DNA of 64,000 nt from a virus. Made by a program: the position numbers and the translations under genes. The notes beneath the pieces are model-generated. The model did not search any database. It was not told the DNA's origin and worked only from the letters and a program-made list of their open reading frames with translations. The stretch covers positions 45,033-109,032 of IMG/VR virus record IMGVR_UViG_3300042880_000420. One strand, given 5' to 3'. This document shows, piece by piece, positions 44,450 to 57,371 of the stretch (position 1 is its first letter; each line of letters starts with the position of its first letter).

Positions 44450-45682
44450 TTATCGTTTAAAAATATTTGTTTGTCTAGGAATTTTTCTAACCTGTTCACT
44501 TTGCGATGTATTCACAGAAGATGTAGCTTTGTTTCTTGATTGTTCAGTTTTAAGTTGTCGTACAGTTTGTTCTACCGCTTGGTTCTTACCTTGCTTCATC
44601 AATGAAGATCTATAATCATCAGGATTAGAAAGTAACCACAAAGCTTCTGCTATAAGATCGTATCTTGGTTCCACATATTGGTATTTTTCCAATAAGTGTC
44701 CTAAAAGATTTGTAGGATTACCATTTATAGAAGGATATTGAGGTTGTGTTAATCCGTTATATAAGAATGACTGCACCTTTTTATCAAGTTTTACGCCCCC
44801 CAATTCACCTTGTCTTAATGTTTCAAAAACATTTTGTACATAAGCATCAGCGGCTTGTTCTTGCTGTTTTCTCATTATTTCTTGCTCTGCAAGTTTAGAC
44901 TGAATCATCTCTTCTTGCATAGCATCCAACTTAGGTTTAAATTGCTTTGCTTTCTTTTCCAGTTGACCAAGATCTTTCCAGTTGTTTACTTCTTCTTCAA
45001 TTTCATCATTGTCACCAAAGTTGGTTGCTTGAAGATAAGAGCGTACAATTGATTCTTGATCACCGTCTGATTCAGGATTTAATTCTCTCACCTGCTCTAC
45101 TTTAGCTAATGCTTGAAATAATCCTTTAAGATCTTGTCCTCCATCTGCTACATATTTAGCAGCATACTGAAGTTCTTCCGGAAGACTTTCAAAAAACTCA
45201 GCAGGTGTGTGAGAAGCTATTTCATTTTTTATATTAGAAATATTAGCTTGCCAAAGCTCATCCAAATCTTTTTCATTCAAAGAACTAATATAGTCGTCTA
45301 AAGTTTGTTTCTCTTCATCATAGTCGTCAAAAGCAAACATTTCCTTAGACTCAATTCTTTTTTTAAGAAAGCCTACAAGAGATGATTTTTCTGTTTTAGG
45401 TCTTCCTCTCTGTACTGTTTCTTCTTCTGAAGAACTATCATTTACAATTTCTTCATCTACAATACTTTCAATTACATCTGTTTGGCTAGGTTGTTCTGGT
45501 TCGTCCAAAAAAGAAACATCTGTTTGTGAACTAGCAAAAATATTAGGTTTTTCCTCTGTTTCTTTTGTAGAAGAAGCTGAGGTCATGACACTATCCGCTC
45601 CAGGTGCACCAATCCAGCTGTCTATATCAAGATCTACTTGGTTAACAGATGTTATATCTGTTGGGTTGTTGTTGGTTTCCAT
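44450..45682 (-). CDS. Acidic scaffold-like protein (410 aa)
   Basis: Acidic N-terminus and coiled coil; between portal and MCP. Confidence 0.65.
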   Translation of the reverse strand: METNNNPTDITSVNQVDLDIDSWIGAPGADSVMTSASSTKETEEKPNIFASSQTDVSFLDEPEQPSQTDVIESIVDEEIVNDSSSEEETVQRGRPKTEKSSLVGFLKKRIESKEMFAFDDYDEEKQTLDDYISSLNEKDLDELWQANISNIKNEIASHTPAEFFESLPEELQYAAKYVADGGQDLKGLFQALAKVEQVRELNPESDGDQESIVRSYLQATNFGDNDEIEEEVNNWKDLGQLEKKAKQFKPKLDAMQEEMIQSKLAEQEIMRKQQEQAADAYVQNVFETLRQGELGGVKLDKKVQSFLYNGLTQPQYPSINGNPTNLLGHLLEKYQYVEPRYDLIAEALWLLSNPDDYRSSLMKQGKNQAVEQTVRQLKTEQSRNKATSSVNTSQSEQVRKIPRQTNIFKR

Positions 45683-48887: not shown

Positions 48888-51113
48888 CTATCTTATGTTT
48901 TTAAAAGCATTTCTAGGGGGAGTATTTAAAGCATTTTTATTTAAACTTCCTGAGTTTATACCCATATGTCTAAATGGAGTCCTTACTGATAATTTACTTA
49001 ATTTTTGTGTATTTTCCAATTTATCATTTGCTATTTCTACTCTTGTAGCTTTACCCCTATTGTTTTGCTGTATTTGAGCAAATGCTACAAGGGAACAAAA
49101 TGAAACCAAACGGTCTACGTTTAAACCCGGTTGGTATTGTTTCATTTCTTCTAATAACATTATGTCGGGTATTCTTTCTACACCATAATGTATTTTTGTT
49201 ATTTCACCATCTTTATTTGTGTGAACATCTAATTCTTCTTGTAAGAATTGTATGCCATAACTTATAAGATGGGTTTTAAAAAGTGTTCCTGTATTTTTCC
49301 AGCCGTATGTAGCAAATACATTAGCATTACTGGACAATTCTTTAAGAAAAGGTATTTGATCTTTAGGAACCAAATATTTTTGTTTCCTTTTACTAATCAT
49401 ATACTGTATAAAAAGACTAACATTATTTTCAACTAATGTCCACGCATTATACCATTCGATGAGCATTTCTAGACGTTCATGTGTTTTTTGCAAATCATCA
49501 AATCTTCCACACCATGAAGCAACAATACCATCTCGCTCAAAATGTGAATTTACTTTACCATTTCCCTCATCCTTAATTACTTCAGTTGGATTTTTATAGA
49601 TAAATATGCTACATAATGAATCTGATGTGGTGGTCCTACCTTCCCCGACTGGATCTATAGAAGCATAATATGTTCCCCAAGGAACATTAGGAATTGGTCT
49701 TTCGTACACGCATATAACTCCAGATTTGTCTTCCATAGTTTTATCTATAGGAAATTTTTTAATAGGTTGTCTATTAGATTTTTTGGCTACAATTTTATTT
49801 TCCTCATTTATACTTAATTCGACATATTCTATAGGATAGTCTCCATCTTCTATACGTTTTATTTGATGTGAAATAAGATGGGGTGGAAATACAGATTCTT
49901 TTCTTGTAGCAAATGCCTCTTCAATATTAGTGGGTTTTTGAGAAATACGTAACTGGTATTGTTCAGGAGATAAGTCTTTTTTCCATTGTTTACGTTCTTC
50001 ATAAATAGCTTCAAGTGCATCATTAACTAAAGAGTTACCAGCTTTATCTATATAAGGAGGCATTGACCATTGTTCAGGAATAAATAATCCAGTTTCCCCT
50101 ATTGTACCATTGTTATCTATTAAATTGGATGTTATAGCAAACATACCATATTTATGAGGATAGAGTATCATTTCTTTAAGAGGTTGACATTGATCTAAAT
50201 CACCCACTGAACCAGCAGCTATAAATGTACCTGTTGTCACCATACCAGATTGCATTGCAGGACGCATAAACTCATAAGTGTCCATCATCTTGGGAGCAAT
50301 TCCAGCTTCTTCATGAAAGAAGTACGATACGGGTCCTCCCACGCCATTAGTTGGGTCTTTTTCAAATGATGTACCTGTAATAATAGACTTGTTACCCTTG
50401 TAAGTGTCTCTACCACCTGTTCTCACTTTAATACGTTGTTGCCAAGAAAACACCTTATCAGGTTCAGAAGGTCTATACCAAGCAGTGTGTTCATTAAGAA
50501 AGTTACGATATTCATTAAGCATCCTCCAAGAACCTTTCTCTGATATATAGTCTTTAAGACTAGCTCCTATTTTATTTACAGAACCTTCTTCAAACCAATA
50601 TTGATTAATCAATTTTCCCATATGAAAATATGAAGATGCTATCTGACGTTTCTTTAATATTGGGACATGTTTATAACTTAATTCTGCTAAAATCTCATAC
50701 AATGCCATATGATATTGAGCATCTCTCACTTTAGCAAAATCAAATCTTTTTTCTTCCTTATCATAAATAGGAAGAAAGTTAAGCCACATATAATAATCAC
50801 GTGTTAAATACCATGTTAATCCATCCTCTTTATAAATAACACCATTGCGACATTTTGCTTTTTCTTCATCCCAATAATTCATAAAGTCTTTTGACTTTAT
50901 TGGAGCATTACAGTAATATCCATCTTTTTGAAACTTTCTAGCTTGAGAATTAAATTCTATAGAAATATTTACGGTAAAATTATAACCTTCATTTGGACCA
51001 GCGTCTTTAAAAACAGAACGTACAAAATCTCTAATTTCTATTCTGTCTTTAAATTCTGTTGTTGTCCAAACACCATTTTCGTAAGTGGGTATTATGTAAT
51101 TAGTTTGATACAT
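48888..51113 (-). CDS. terL: Terminase large subunit
   Basis: LKKRQIASSY Walker A variant; FFHEEAG Walker B; nuclease YYASIDPV...SDSL; LVENN; NVDRLVS. Confidence 0.93.
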   Translation of the reverse strand: MYQTNYIIPTYENGVWTTTEFKDRIEIRDFVRSVFKDAGPNEGYNFTVNISIEFNSQARKFQKDGYYCNAPIKSKDFMNYWDEEKAKCRNGVIYKEDGLTWYLTRDYYMWLNFLPIYDKEEKRFDFAKVRDAQYHMALYEILAELSYKHVPILKKRQIASSYFHMGKLINQYWFEEGSVNKIGASLKDYISEKGSWRMLNEYRNFLNEHTAWYRPSEPDKVFSWQQRIKVRTGGRDTYKGNKSIITGTSFEKDPTNGVGGPVSYFFHEEAGIAPKMMDTYEFMRPAMQSGMVTTGTFIAAGSVGDLDQCQPLKEMILYPHKYGMFAITSNLIDNNGTIGETGLFIPEQWSMPPYIDKAGNSLVNDALEAIYEERKQWKKDLSPEQYQLRISQKPTNIEEAFATRKESVFPPHLISHQIKRIEDGDYPIEYVELSINEENKIVAKKSNRQPIKKFPIDKTMEDKSGVICVYERPIPNVPWGTYYASIDPVGEGRTTTSDSLCSIFIYKNPTEVIKDEGNGKVNSHFERDGIVASWCGRFDDLQKTHERLEMLIEWYNAWTLVENNVSLFIQYMISKRKQKYLVPKDQIPFLKELSSNANVFATYGWKNTGTLFKTHLISYGIQFLQEELDVHTNKDGEITKIHYGVERIPDIMLLEEMKQYQPGLNVDRLVSFCSLVAFAQIQQNNRGKATRVEIANDKLENTQKLSKLSVRTPFRHMGINSGSLNKNALNTPPRNAFKNIR

Positions 51114-53142: not shown

Positions 53143-53457
53143 TTATAATTGTTGGTTTAACATATCCTCTTCTTTTTCTGTTAAAATAGCTTTCCATTTA
53201 GGAATAGGAAGAGGACATCCTGAACTTAATGCTCTTGTTTTCAATGACAAACTACATCCACAACCTCCAGTATTCTTATTGCAACATGGTGCTGTACCAG
53301 GTACCAAGCACCCTGTACCCTCATCATCATAATTAATACATTTTTTACATAAATTTAATCTAGCATATGCAATTTCTTCAACATGTTCTTTCTTAAATAT
53401 GTTGTTTCTTATACCTTCAAGAATTGACTTTCTATTATTAAATATTTGTTTTAGCAT
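53143..53457 (-). CDS. Cys-rich Zn-binding protein
   Basis: RLNLCKKC...CC...CGC...K.R...CP...KW. Confidence 0.65.
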   Translation of the reverse strand: MLKQIFNNRKSILEGIRNNIFKKEHVEEIAYARLNLCKKCINYDDEGTGCLVPGTAPCCNKNTGGCGCSLSLKTRALSSGCPLPIPKWKAILTEKEEDMLNQQL

Positions 53458-53824
53458 AATTTCTTTTTCGATGTATTTTTATAAATTCTTTTCGTTGCAT
53501 TTCACTTTTACACATATCCATCATTTTTTCAATGTAAGTTAATTTATTACGTAATTGTTCTATAATCAACTCACTGCGTTTAGACCCACGTTGTGCTATA
53601 CTATCTATCATAAAAAGATATTTCTCCTTTTCTTTTTCTAATATCCAATGCTTTATAGTAAAATTACCAAAAGCACTGACATGTACAATAGGAGCTTTTA
53701 ATTCTGAAAGAGCACCTCGTACATCTTTCCAATATGTTGTTACAATATCGTTAACAATATTTACAGGTAGATTTAACTCCATTGCTGTAGATACAATAAG
53801 GTCTTTAGCTTTTGTTGGTTTCAA
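53438..53824 (-). CDS. HU/IHF-like DNA-binding protein (TTG start)
   Basis: KDLIVSTAMELNLP...VHVSAFGNFTIK. Confidence 0.7.
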   Translation of the reverse strand: MKPTKAKDLIVSTAMELNLPVNIVNDIVTTYWKDVRGALSELKAPIVHVSAFGNFTIKHWILEKEKEKYLFMIDSIAQRGSKRSELIIEQLRNKLTYIEKMMDMCKSEMQRKEFIKIHRKRNYAKTNI

Positions 53825-54183: not shown

Positions 54184-54537
54184 TTACTTTTTTAATGCTC
54201 TATTAGATATAGGTGCTTTTTTCTCCTCTTTATCAGCAATCTCTGTTGGAATGCCTATTACATCACCCACCTTTAAACCTTGTTCCTTTAATTCTGGGTT
54301 GGCTTCAAGATCTTCTTCTGTAAGGGTGTGTTCTGCAACAGCATTAGAACCTTCATGTGGGGTAGAAATTTGAGCAATTGTATACATTGCTTTTACATAT
54401 TCTGCACGTGCAACAGCAATCCTTGTATCAAGCTCTTGTAATTCAGCTTGTACTTTCTTAAATTCAATTTGCTCTTGCATCCATGTAAGCATTTGCTCCT
54501 TTGTAGGAGCTGCATCTTGTTTTTGTTGGTTTTCCAT
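54184..54537 (-). CDS. Hypothetical protein (117 aa), first gene of the packaging operon
   Basis: Coiled coil plus HTLTEEDLEANPELKEQGLKVGDVI module. Confidence 0.65.
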   Translation of the reverse strand: MENQQKQDAAPTKEQMLTWMQEQIEFKKVQAELQELDTRIAVARAEYVKAMYTIAQISTPHEGSNAVAEHTLTEEDLEANPELKEQGLKVGDVIGIPTEIADKEEKKAPISNRALKK

Positions 54538-54557
54538 TATGTTTTGTTTTTAAAGTA

Positions 54558-54589
54558 CAAATATATATAGAAAGTTTAAACTTTCCAAA
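54558..54589 (-). promoter_or_regulatory. Bacteroidota-type sigma promoter with operator palindrome in the spacer
   Basis: TTTG-N20-TATATTTG on the minus strand; GAAAGTTTAAACTTTC at 54570-54585. Confidence 0.7.
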
Positions 54590-54755
54590 TTTATTTGAAT
54601 ATTAAACAACACCTTAATTACAGAGGCATATATAACCTTCACATTCAGGGCAGCAAATTGGGGAGCAAATTATTTCTTTCATATAATTAATATAACAACA
54701 TTATAGAAGAAACACAAATAATTTATACCTTTTTATATTATAAAAAACCATTATA

Positions 54756-54793
54756 TGTCCCAAAACGGGACAAAACTGTCCCAAAACGGGACA
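54756..54793. repeat. Two tandem palindromic iteron-like units
   Basis: TGTCCC-AAAAC-GGGACA at 54756 and 54777 (21-bp period). Confidence 0.85.
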
Positions 54794-54799
54794 AGAGTG

Positions 54800-54822
54800 T
54801 ATTGATAATCAATGAGTTATGA
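54800..54822 (+). repeat. 23-bp direct repeat, copy 1
   Basis: TATTGATAATCAATGAGTTATGA; 21/23 identical to 56002-56024. Confidence 0.75.
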
Positions 54823-54854
54823 CACTTCTCTATTTAATATTTCTAAGAATAATC

Positions 54855-55349
54855 TTAACTTAATAATTTAGAAATCTTTGTATTAGCAAATTGTACAAAT
54901 ATACTATCTGATTTAAGCTTTCCTTTCCAAGAAATATATGGATTTAAAATCCAATATTCAGAAATTTCTGTTTCGTGTATTCTGATATGAGCATAAACCC
55001 CCCATTCAAATAACTTCTTAAATATCCCCCCCACCTTATTCTTACCAATATTAAATTCCTCAGCTAACACCCTAATAGAAGTTTCATCAGAAAATGGTTT
55101 AAGACTATTTGTATTAAAACAAGCTTTCTCTATCATCTTATAAACAATACCAAGTTCTTCATTACTAAGAACTGTAGATAGCACTCTAATAGCATCATTG
55201 TTTACTAATGAAAAATTATTATAATTTAATAAAGACTTATCCTTAGGTATATTACTATATCCCTTTTTTACAAAAGATATTTCTCCGGTTTGTGCGTTAA
55301 CTTTAGCAGCCAACTCATCATCTTTCAATTTAACATTTATATTATACAT
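54855..55349 (-). CDS. RepL-like winged-helix replication/DNA-binding protein
   Basis: SIRVLAEEFNIGKNKVGGIFKKLFEWGV wHTH; YWILNPYISWKG RepL-type motif; start at 55349 lies just after a TATCTTTG -7 box. Confidence 0.65.
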   Translation of the reverse strand: MYNINVKLKDDELAAKVNAQTGEISFVKKGYSNIPKDKSLLNYNNFSLVNNDAIRVLSTVLSNEELGIVYKMIEKACFNTNSLKPFSDETSIRVLAEEFNIGKNKVGGIFKKLFEWGVYAHIRIHETEISEYWILNPYISWKGKLKSDSIFVQFANTKISKLLS

Positions 55350-55353
55350 ACAA

Positions 55354-55361
55354 CAAAGATA
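55354..55361 (-). promoter_or_regulatory. Bacteroidota -7 element (TATCTTTG), implying a near-leaderless RepL transcript
   Basis: TAnnTTTG 4 nt upstream of ATG 55349. Confidence 0.55.
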
Positions 55362-55608
55362 TAACAAAAACTATTATAATTATTTTTTATAAAATTTAAT
55401 TAATTGTAAATGATATATCCCCCATATGATAACACACAATATAACTCCCCCAGGCATGCTTATGTTTGGAGATTTTTATAAAGTTTTAAAATATAAGATT
55501 TTGACATGTAATTTATTTTGTAATAGAGGGTGTAATGGGTATTTCCAAAAAATACCCCTACTCTGTTTTGGTGGTGATATTACCCCCATAATCTTAAATT
55601 CTTATTTT

Positions 55609-55893
55609 ATGAATCCTATCCAAGCCGTAATTGTTTCAATCAATGACGTTGTTAAAACCAAAACCAATGGTAAGTCCTATGTGACTTGCAAGGTGGAATT
55701 CCCTAACGGAAAAACTTGGTTTGCTCAGCGGACGCTGGGTGAAAACAAGGCAGTCATTCATGTCGGTCAAACAGTCACGTGTATTCCAAGTGTCATCGTA
55801 GATGCGGAAGGTAAAAACCAACCTTTCTTGGAAATCTCCACGGGAGTTTCAGTGAGCAGTAAGGAGGAAATCCTTGCAATGCTTGGACTGTAA
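55609..55893 (+). CDS. OB-fold-like protein (94 aa), possible SSB
   Basis: MNPIQAVIVSIN...KTNGKSYVTCKVEF...VGQTVTC all-beta pattern; start reassigned from 55426. Confidence 0.55.
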   Translation: MNPIQAVIVSINDVVKTKTNGKSYVTCKVEFPNGKTWFAQRTLGENKAVIHVGQTVTCIPSVIVDAEGKNQPFLEISTGVSVSSKEEILAMLGL

Positions 55894-55904
55894 TAGTCCA
55901 ACAT

Positions 55905-55942
55905 AAAACACACACAGCAGAAATGTTGTGTGTGTTTTTTTT
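55905..55942 (+). terminator. Intrinsic terminator
   Basis: AAAACACACACAGCA-GAAA-TGTTGTGTGTGTTTT followed by a T run. Confidence 0.85.
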
Positions 55943-55952
55943 ATTTGTTTAT

Positions 55953-55981
55953 ATATTCCTACGAATATTCCTACGAATATT
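55953..55981. repeat. 12-bp tandem repeat, 2.4 copies
   Basis: ATATTCCTACGA ATATTCCTACGA ATATT. Confidence 0.8.
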
Positions 55982-56001
55982 TTTAATAAAACATTACAAC
56001 T

Positions 56002-56024
56002 TATTGATTATCAATTAGTTATGA
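56002..56024 (+). repeat. 23-bp direct repeat, copy 2, part of an imperfect palindrome
   Basis: TATTGATTATCAATTAGTTATGA; overlaps AACTTATTGAT-T-ATCAATTAGTT. Confidence 0.75.
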
Positions 56025-56028
56025 TGTA

Positions 56029-56044
56029 TGTTCCACGTGAAACA
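56029..56044. promoter_or_regulatory. parS: parS centromere-like site
   Basis: TGTTCCACGTGAAACA, exact match to the bacterial consensus TGTTNCACGTGAAACA; intergenic. Confidence 0.85.
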
Positions 56045-56702
56045 TTTGTTTTTTTGTTAGTTGTGTGAGTGTGTTTATAAGTGGTAAACAACTCACACAC
56101 TGTTTCTTAATATAAACGAATACTTAGATTCCACAAAAAACTTGCGGCATTAAATAGCTATAGACTGAAATGTTCCTTTACACAGTCTTTAAATAAATGT
56201 ATAAATACAATTGCTGCATGGTAGCTCAAAGCAAGTTGTTAATTCAACCAACATTCTTTTTAGTATTATTTTTCTTATATGGGATAAAGCATAGAAAAAA
56301 TATACACCTTTTACAATAAGCACTACAAAGGAAGGCATTCCTAGTAGTAAAAGAAAACAATAGTATATCACTGCATACTGTTGTTTCTGCTTTTATTAAA
56401 AATTAGTCATAAAAAAAGACTAATACTACTATGTAAAAAAAATTATTAAATTCCTGAAAGTATTTCCAAATGTAGTGATTAGGAAAAAGGATAGGGGCTT
56501 GTGGTTAAACTGTAGACTACGAGCAAGAGCAGTGGTGTTGATATCTTCCTTATAGATATTATTATAACAAATAATAGAGAAGTACGAATTACAACCTCAA
56601 TTGTAATTAAAAGAAAAAGTAAGTGTGAGAAGCTTATAAATATCTTTTGTATTATATATAGATGTACACTATATGTAAGATTTTATCTATTATTTGTTAT
56701 AA

Positions 56703-56762
56703 TTTCTGTCCATAAACTGTTGTTTATGCTGATGATGACCTAATTGAGGGTCGAAACAGAAA
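56703..56762 (+). ncRNA. Type III hammerhead ribozyme
   Basis: Stem III UUUCUGU/ACAGAAA; GUC cleavage triplet (cut after 56710); stem I CAUAAAC/GUUUAUG; core CUGAUGA(U); stem II GACC/GGUC; GAAA. Confidence 0.9.
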
Positions 56763-56781
56763 CCTTTTTAAATTTAAAACA

Positions 56782-57117
56782 ATGGAAACAATCAATGTTT
56801 ATTCCGCATTTAGTCATGTATTTAGTACTTCAAAAGAAAATACAGATATTCATTACTATGAATCAAAATATGTTAAAGCTCCTAACAATCATGTTATATG
56901 TATTGATAGTGCAAGAGAAGAAGCTCATAGTGCTAAATTTAATTCTATTATAGGTAAAACATTTCAACCTGAATATAGAATTGAATTATGGGCTACTAAA
57001 ACATTTGAAGAAAGAAAAAAACAAGATTTTATTAATCTTCAAATGAAACGTCAGATAATTCATTATTGTGATGGTACTCATAAAATTGTTGAACTTAAAG
57101 ATTTGCAATTAATATGA
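56782..57117 (+). CDS. Hypothetical early protein (111 aa)
   Basis: ORF track; A-rich leader. Confidence 0.65.
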   Translation: METINVYSAFSHVFSTSKENTDIHYYESKYVKAPNNHVICIDSAREEAHSAKFNSIIGKTFQPEYRIELWATKTFEERKKQDFINLQMKRQIIHYCDGTHKIVELKDLQLI

Positions 57118-57371
57118 GTAAAGAAATAGTTTACTGAAAACAACGTAATGGTGTATTAATATCTATATATGATATGGATATTAATCACCTTCGTAATGTG
57201 TTAAAACTAATCATCAAAAATAAAAACAGATTAAAAGCTACTTTAAATGAAAAACTTGAAAAAGAAAAACATATAAAAGCAGCTAATAACTTTGTTTTAC
57301 ATGGTGATATGGCTCAAGAATTTCATGAATCTTATTTATCTGATGAAGATGATGATAGATTTGATGATTAA
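57114..57371 (+). pseudogene. Small phage gene with in-frame TGA at codon 8 (alternatively a 65-aa CDS from 57174)
   Basis: ATG overlapping the upstream stop (ATGA): MSKEIVY*KQRNGVLISIYDMDINHLRN... Confidence 0.5.

Follow-up and report, generated by a model that had tools for sequence, protein, structure and literature searches.

A host-type parS site, probably loaded by host ParB, and a separate winged-helix cassette at the strand switch of a freshwater crAss-like phage

A 64,000-nucleotide stretch of viral DNA (the window; positions 45,033 to 109,032, the last 64 kb, of the 109,032-bp IMG/VR virus record IMGVR_UViG_3300042880_000420) contains, where transcription switches strand, a single exact copy of the chromosomal ParB site parS and, close to it, a gene for a winged helix-turn-helix (wHTH) DNA-binding protein followed by two palindromes. 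In the reading that we favour, at a probability of roughly 0.65, parS works as a site at which the host's ParB protein is loaded, and the wHTH protein with its two palindromes constitutes a separate accessory cassette. The parS sequence, its selection within the phage clade and the absence of a phage-encoded ParA or ParB are read directly from the data; from these we infer ParB binding and the steps that would follow it.

The site, TGTTCCACGTGAAACA, lies at positions 56029-56044 and has no strand. As the original prediction had stated, the match is exact: the 16-bp palindrome fits the chromosomal-type consensus TGTTNCACGTGAAACA throughout, and it is the sole copy both in the window and in the whole record. 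A genome of this composition would be expected to contain about 1.8e-4 exact parS matches. In contigs from two other lake populations the 16-mer is intact amid nearby substitutions; cover by lake-metagenome contigs is patchy, and it was used solely for sequence junctions and for the intact parS in these two runs.

Near-identical DNA is present in about 20 studies of lake-water and other freshwater metagenomes, and a search of the locus DNA against GenBank phages gave no match. Relatives were considered through TerL, which is encoded at 48888-51113 on the minus strand; the set comprised 80 TerL-anchored loci (0.93 Mb, with TerL 68-100% identical), from about 420 TerL relatives overall. The exact sequence TGTTNCACGTGNAACA was found in 13 of the 80 loci and a site within one mismatch in 29. 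For 840 control palindromes, made by permuting half-sites with the composition kept, the mean was 0.04 loci and the maximum 4, compared with 15 for parS by the same measure. Among whole genomes, G000, G001, G003 and G005 have one parS each, and G002 and G004 have none. The suggested check of relatives, for parS at the homologous locus and for parB elsewhere, came out in favour of the idea: the same 16-mer occupies the homologous spacer in L003-L006, L018/20, L059, L083 and L224, and ParB_N was not found in five relatives of 96-100% completeness. In contrast, no parS within one mismatch was found in eight reference crAss-like or related phages (crAss001, DAC15, FpV4, FPSV-D1, phi14:2, phi17:2, crAssphage LMMB and cr130_1; 0.82 Mb), in which two-mismatch matches occur at the rate of a reversed-pattern control. 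Since the site is enriched in the relatives and missing from all eight reference genomes, it is a trait that marks this freshwater clade rather than crAss-like phages as a whole.

The location of parS changes from lineage to lineage. Among the relatives it occupies at least five slots, which together span more than 15 kb and include coding DNA. Slot A is the strand-switch spacer (used in the window and in loci L018/20, L059, L079, L083, L224 and L003-L006), slot B falls within a small open reading frame (ORF), 137-146 nt upstream of TerL, slots C and C' lie ~200 nt and ~640 nt into the homologue of gene 44450-45682, and slot D is another spacer. Slots A, B and C were all covered in 20 loci, and the 12 of these that have a site carry it in exactly one slot each. 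Mapping the slot label onto a TerL tree required at least 11 changes, the minimum possible being 5, a count that phage mosaicism could inflate. Slot A arises at four separate places in the tree, which fits an ancestral position. The flanks of slot A sites are unrelated between lineages and their orientation flips, whereas half-site positions 3 and 6-8 are invariant; two parS copies 125-154 bp apart are present in L003-L005, and one copy is seen in L006, on a contig that ends 161 bp before it. The slot C site lies in the structural gene p410, within a hypervariable acidic linker, where it encodes the peptide VSRET. In L054 the peptide is VPRGT, yet the DNA is still a perfect parS-type palindrome, which argues for selection on the DNA. 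Taken together, the enrichment, the five-slot turnover and the conservation at the DNA level indicate that parS is kept by selection and not by chance.

The DNA that adjoins the site has features of its own. A GT-rich hairpin lies beside parS at 56058-56102 (RNA fold -19.8 kcal/mol on the plus and -16.8 kcal/mol on the minus strand; z -3.2 and -4.3, respectively), and a comparable GTGTG...CACAC hairpin of different sequence stands next to parS in L003-6, L018, L083 and L224. In the window the hairpin is continued by a non-coding block of ~150 nt, so that the two extend over 56058-56260 (..GAGCTACCATGCA..AAGGAACA..TAGCTATTTAAT..CCGCAA-T run). The block is recognisably kept adjoining parS in L003/4, L083 and L224; an early-promoter region and a small RNA are both possible readings of it. 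When 54300-57300 was searched against Rfam at E<=1, no hammerhead was matched, 56703-56762 included.

The original prediction had noted that parA and parB are absent from the window, and this extends to the complete record: ParB_N, HTH_ParB, AAA_31 and CbiA (ParA) were found neither in the window nor in the whole genome. HTH_ParB likewise gave no significant match in four near-complete relatives (the best, in G001, being E 0.011 over 20 positions), while the positive control, B. thetaiotaomicron, was matched in both the ParB_N and the HTH_ParB searches. A tyrosine integrase was not found anywhere in the genome. TerL is ~25% identical to Crassvirales terminases, and the cultured phages that it matches all infect Bacteroidota (Bacteroides, Flavobacterium psychrophilum and Cellulophaga); the host of this phage probably belongs to the Bacteroidota and does not sporulate. 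When species-representative bacterial genomes were searched with TerL, the only matches were two contigs from metagenome-assembled genomes, one in a Campylobacteraceae bin and one in a Clostridium bin. Because these bins disagree and look like artefacts of low-GC composition, no host was inferred from them. Bacteroidota possess ParABS and the consensus parS (PMC10197239), and a chromosomal par operon with one parS is able to stabilise unstable plasmids (PMC7022226). Given that the phage encodes no ParB and that Bacteroidota have ParABS, host ParB would be the economical reader of the site. The proposal that the phage borrows host ParB is thus favoured by the selection seen in the clade (enrichment, turnover and in-gene DNA conservation) and by the lack of a phage ParB, and parS is most likely a selected loading site for host ParB. 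In a literature search, neither parS on crAss-like phages nor hijacked chromosomal parS was the subject of any specific report found.

According to the model, phage DNA would enter the cell and circularise, host ParB-CTP would bind the 16-mer at 56029-56044, and ParB clamps would spread onto the flanking phage DNA. Host ParA would then move the complex, host SMC would be loaded, or both, and phage genomes would be positioned and shared among daughter cells in a non-lytic (carrier or episomal) phase. For its part, a dimer of the wHTH protein would recognise the two palindromes just past its stop codon. The full version of this model, in which the freshwater clade partly lives as a low-copy episome partitioned by host ParABS via one borrowed centromere, is distinctly doubtful taken as a whole.

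The original prediction had combined parS, the wHTH gene and the palindromes into one plasmid-like maintenance module. This grouping has to be given up, because parS and the wHTH cassette occur independently of each other: most parS-bearing relatives are without the cassette, and G006, a complete phage of 103 kb, carries the cassette but lacks parS. Within the window, direct repeats of 22 bp, both on the plus strand, flank the pair formed by the wHTH gene and a small plus-strand gene, with the left copy ATTGATAATCAATGAGTTATGA at 54801-54822 and the right copy ATTGATTATCAATTAGTTATGA, which contains the palindrome ATTGAT-N-ATCAAT, at 56003-56024. At these repeats, contigs from lake samples break off or pass into different sequence (for the left copy, with break points at 54800-54820), and in L004-6 and L224 the 22-bp motif is present as a single copy adjoining parS. 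Relatives that lack the cassette have one copy of the motif next to parS. The repeats are candidates for a recombination or mosaic boundary. Since the cassette is bracketed by repeats at which contigs diverge, it appears to be a mosaic insert beside a backbone parS.

The wHTH protein has 164 amino acids and is encoded at 54855-55349 on the minus strand. Its start is most likely the ATG at 55349, and an alternative TTG start lies at 55367. The sequence fits the host-type promoter that had been described for the gene: a TAnnTTTG motif ends 4 nt short of this ATG, and it lies 5-21 nt upstream of the homologues in L083, L089 and L224. Genome-wide, 21 of 191 TAnnTTTG matches are intergenic, where intergenic DNA makes up 6.9% of bases, too mild an enrichment to decide on the host. 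The AlphaFold2 model of the protein is a winged helix (pLDDT 81), and an exhaustive profile search found a family of 340 clusters. The earlier description of the protein as RepL-like did not withstand comparison with RepL itself. The Pfam RepL model (PF05732, cut-off 20.3 bits) gave no match at E<=1 in the protein or in the genome, although the same model matches the RepL of crAssphage LMMB at E 1e-9 as a positive control, and alignment of the wHTH family with that RepL by hhalign gave a probability of 1.2%. No Pfam family matched the protein over threshold, with Lin1244_N at 15 bits against a cut-off of 25, and Foldseek returned generic MarR, ArsR and TFE matches, none of them at E<=0.001.

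An alternative that we consider rather unlikely is an initiator of a broader RepL/DnaD-like kind, for which the two palindromes and the adjacent AT-rich DNA would serve as an accessory replication origin, possibly in a plasmid mode such as has been proposed for the prototypic crAssphage. Weak Pfam matches among 27 family members (Lin1244_N in 4, best E 0.033; RepL in 1, E 5e-4; Phage_rep_O, HTH_36 and MCM_WH in one or two each) lean weakly towards initiator-type winged helices, and in one relative the wHTH domain is fused to a RepL-scoring domain. The top match in VIA was the DnaD N-domain (Z 8.2 over 104 residues, rmsd 5.7), where Z 8 is the noise level, and a RepA_N-type 'MDR initiator' was matched at Z 5.8. 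The protein resembles DnaD N-terminal, Lin1244_N and RepA_N-type domains, and the DNA-binding arms of free-standing GIY-YIG and HNH homing endonucleases, in its winged helix, to which a beta-hairpin and C-terminal helices are added, but the sequence matches fall below the family thresholds. The gene is located at a strand switch and a GC-skew minimum, as are RepL and the predicted origin in Carjivirus communis (10.1101/2024.03.20.585998). The strand switch is real, with minus-strand genes up to 55349/55367 and plus-strand genes from ~55609. Cumulative GC skew, proposed earlier as a check, does reach its minimum in the 54-56 kb bin; this is also the place where gene strand switches, and because any such switch gives a skew minimum the result does not discriminate an origin. 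In the long members of the family (P0136, P0143, P0144, P0146, P0149 and P0175) the domain is fused to a GIY-YIG, T5orf172/MUG113 or HNH nuclease. The nuclease and RepL-type fusions suggest that the wHTH domain is a portable sequence-specific DNA-binding module, and to judge from these fused sequences the family doubles as the targeting arm of homing-endonuclease-like proteins; the protein in the window differs from such relatives in having no nuclease or helicase-loader part. Finally, since most relatives are without the cassette, it cannot be the essential origin of the clade.

The palindromes themselves offer a further view of what the wHTH protein may do. Two units of TGTCCC-N5-GGGACA, TGTCCCAAAACGGGACA, occupy 54756-54793 (no strand), the first at 54756-54772 and the second at 54777-54793, 21 bp from start to start and unique in the genome, just as had been described. 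Their characterisation as iteron-like was misleading: there are two units, each an inverted repeat, whereas an iteron-type origin needs at least three direct repeats of ~17-22 bp, all in one orientation and adjacent to an initiator gene. The TGTCCCAAAACGGGACA palindromes occur solely where the wHTH gene occurs, and in at least 11 lineages two palindromes, 21-22 bp from centre to centre, lie 45-100 nt past the stop codon of a wHTH homologue. The homologues are 39-94% identical and the palindrome arms differ by lineage (GTCCC, GTATC, GTCAC, GCACG or TCCCT); in L089 each unit is a perfect palindrome of 14-16 bp, centre included. Identical dimer-type sites two helical turns apart, with arms that vary along with the protein, are read here as sites of the wHTH protein, and the palindromes are probably its binding sites. 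Transcription termination was considered as their sole role and ruled out, because in L083 the arms are kept while the spacers are flipped relative to the gene, because T runs are missing in L088 and L089, and because L088 has a separate canonical terminator after the palindromes. The next gene, on the minus strand at 54614-54682, is a 22-aa Cys-rich micro-ORF (MKEIICSPICCPECEGYICLCN) that opens a backbone operon running to TerL. Its core CCPECE..C.C is conserved in L005/L006, which have no cassette, and in L083, and its product may be a zinc- or disulfide-binding micropeptide. The palindromes lie 72 nt upstream of the micro-ORF, a position that favours a transcriptional switch or roadblock on the TerL operon; such a role for the wHTH protein and its palindromes is a tentative proposal, slightly likelier than an extra origin.

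Several observations weigh against a functional parS with a separate wHTH cassette. Two near-complete relatives, G002 and G004, have no site within one mismatch, which suggests that parS is favoured yet dispensable. In the slot B sites, A or T replaces the G of position 2 in one half-site, and these sites may be weak binders. In L058/L060 the VSRET peptide of slot C is kept while a synonymous change breaks parS, a pattern that hints at some constraint at the peptide level. Generality beyond the clade is not shown by a scan of all viral contigs, in which exact parS occurs in at least 119 stretches, not clearly above a rough chance figure of ~100 that assumes a collection size of ~58 Gb; among the matches listed, 24 large viral contigs have exact parS, and of these 2 have ParB_N above the cut-off and none is TerL-related. 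The two identical palindromes of the cassette can form one long RNA hairpin (-22.4 kcal/mol), so the changing arms fit RNA structure as well as protein-DNA co-evolution. An episomal phase of this clade, moreover, is a proposal made here for crAss-like phages that are lytic.

A functional site need not serve partition. Host ParB could bind and the benefit lie elsewhere, in SMC loading that folds or resolves the replicating phage DNA, in the silencing of neighbouring early or late promoters by ParB spreading, as a dormancy switch, or in titration of ParB from the host origin. The slot that looks ancestral is a divergent promoter region, ParB-parS loads SMC in bacteria (PMC10197239), and one site per 110-125 kb genome suffices for loading. 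Titration is at odds with a single site on few genome copies, which binds little ParB, and sites in a structural gene or upstream of TerL are badly placed for silencing early promoters. As a group, these uses are unlikely to be what parS is kept for.

Less probable still is a palindrome that merely resembles parS and serves as operator or packaging signal for a protein encoded by the phage. Slot B, 137-146 nt upstream of TerL in a small ORF, is where pac sites often lie, and conserved small DNA-binding candidates are present (p124, wHTH, and p128, HU-like, both weak matches). A symmetric variant, TTTTGCACGTGCAATA, occupies the strand-switch parS slot in L008, L009, L011 and L056, which form one subclade, and would also fit a phage reader. 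L009 additionally has TGTCCCACGTGGAACA inside gene p410; the symmetric variant may represent a decaying site or a host ParB of relaxed specificity. However, all 15 specified positions of the 16-mer match a consensus that is conserved across bacterial phyla, and the phage encodes no ParB-type helix-turn-helix. The site also shifts over more than 15 kb, moves into coding DNA and flips its orientation, behaviour unsuited to an operator or to a fixed packaging start. The full consensus match and this mobility together make a phage operator or pac signal unlikely. That parS is a chance match or a neutral remnant, such as a scrap of host DNA, is highly improbable: a scan of this size does expect some tens of chance 16-mer matches, and G002 and G004 do without the site, but the enrichment in the clade over controls, the five slots, the unrelated flanks and the lack of host genes nearby speak against it.

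The remaining features concern the rest of the cassette and the surrounding backbone. The small plus-strand gene of the cassette, 55609-55893, encodes an orphan all-beta protein of 94 amino acids, whose OB fold, given in the original prediction, is putative. It has no homologue outside its own cluster, no Pfam or PHROG match and no convincing homology when aligned with the divergent small genes of relatives. Its single-sequence model has five strands and a helix at a poor pLDDT of 49, and a protein atlas leads only to the G5P/ssDBP families of single-stranded-DNA-binding proteins (scores 0.84-0.85). The gene is replaceable: in one lake contig 55537-55997 is swapped for 422 other bases, replacing it. 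An intrinsic terminator for this gene, with a 15-bp stem and a T run, lies at 55905-55938 on the plus strand. The genome as a whole (CheckV completeness 91%, GC ~30%) has a minus-strand block of 72 kb that encodes giant virion proteins, the portal and TerL and is flanked by blocks on the plus strand. In the 125.9-kb relative G005 (L221/L222) the recorded 'direct terminal repeat' is an 87-bp overlap inside TerL, which points to a circular assembly and no true genome end. Two conserved backbone genes on the minus strand have weak DNA-binding matches. Gene 53805-54179 matches TrmB/LexA-type wHTH domains and the PHROG 'replication initiation O-like' family (E 0.005), and gene 53438-53824 has an HU-like Bac_DNA_binding match (E 0.08); by these matches both are candidates for the real initiator or regulator of the clade. 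Directly upstream of gene 54184-54537 a perfect palindrome, GAAAGTTTAAACTTTC, stands at 54571-54586 and recurs in 4 loci, and AAACCAATATTGGTTT recurs in 9 loci. Both are candidate operators.

Host-type parS sites on a virus without a partition system have a precedent. Phage phi29 has five host-type parS sites, with Spo0J assisting the passage of its genome into the prespore (PMC2731898). The virulent Bacillus phages phi29 and Nf resemble this phage in carrying the host ParB-binding consensus with neither a ParB nor an integrase of their own. The likeness would extend to host-driven segregation of a dormant phage genome, which is proposed here, with binding shown for phi29. phi29 differs in its linear, protein-primed genome of 19 kb with five sites and in its pay-off, Spo0J-dependent entrapment in the spore (Meijer et al. 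2005, as summarised in PMC2731898), whereas here a crAss-like genome of 110-125 kb from lake water has a single site, or two in some relatives. In this clade a whole genome holds one site or none, the cultured phages matched by TerL infect Bacteroidota rather than a sporulating host, and the position of the site differs between relatives. The principle is already known from phi29; on this comparison, what is new is a very different phage and host setting. Chromosomal ParABS systems have the identical 16-bp consensus, and a single site is sufficient for them (PMC7022226; PMC4368675); here, in contrast, parS belongs to a virus and has no parAB operon or oriC near it.

Phage-plasmids such as P1 (parABS) and N15 (sopAB) carry their own partition systems. 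In this phage RepL, ParA and ParB were not detected, and there is a cis site only. Carjivirus communis, with two RepL genes, has been proposed to live as a phage-plasmid, and the paper mentions neither parS nor ParB (10.1101/2024.03.20.585998). It is similar to this phage in being a tailed phage with a possible episomal phase and in having a crAss-type genome whose strand switch holds a DNA-binding gene; crAssphage LMMB is unlike this phage in having no parS within one mismatch.

crAss-like phages persist for long periods without integrating, by a mechanism that is debated between a carrier state, phase variation and a proposed phage-plasmid life. For crAss001, persistent non-lysogenic coexistence with the host is documented (PMC6235969, PMC8375218). 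That a phage without ParAB has a selected host-type centromere is evidence, taken directly from the sequence, that host chromosome segregation is engaged by at least one crAss-like clade, and the positional turnover, with sites in coding DNA included, shows selection for a bare cis site in a virus. If this is true, the repeated re-invention of parS, even as VSRET in a structural gene, would show that the selection is strong. The wHTH protein and its two palindromes, in a family of 340 clusters, are a compact uncharacterised pair of a protein and its probable binding site, and the 16-bp parS is an experimental handle on the host segregation machinery. An episome partitioned by host ParABS, if it exists, would be a concrete mechanism for the persistence of Crassvirales without lysogeny.

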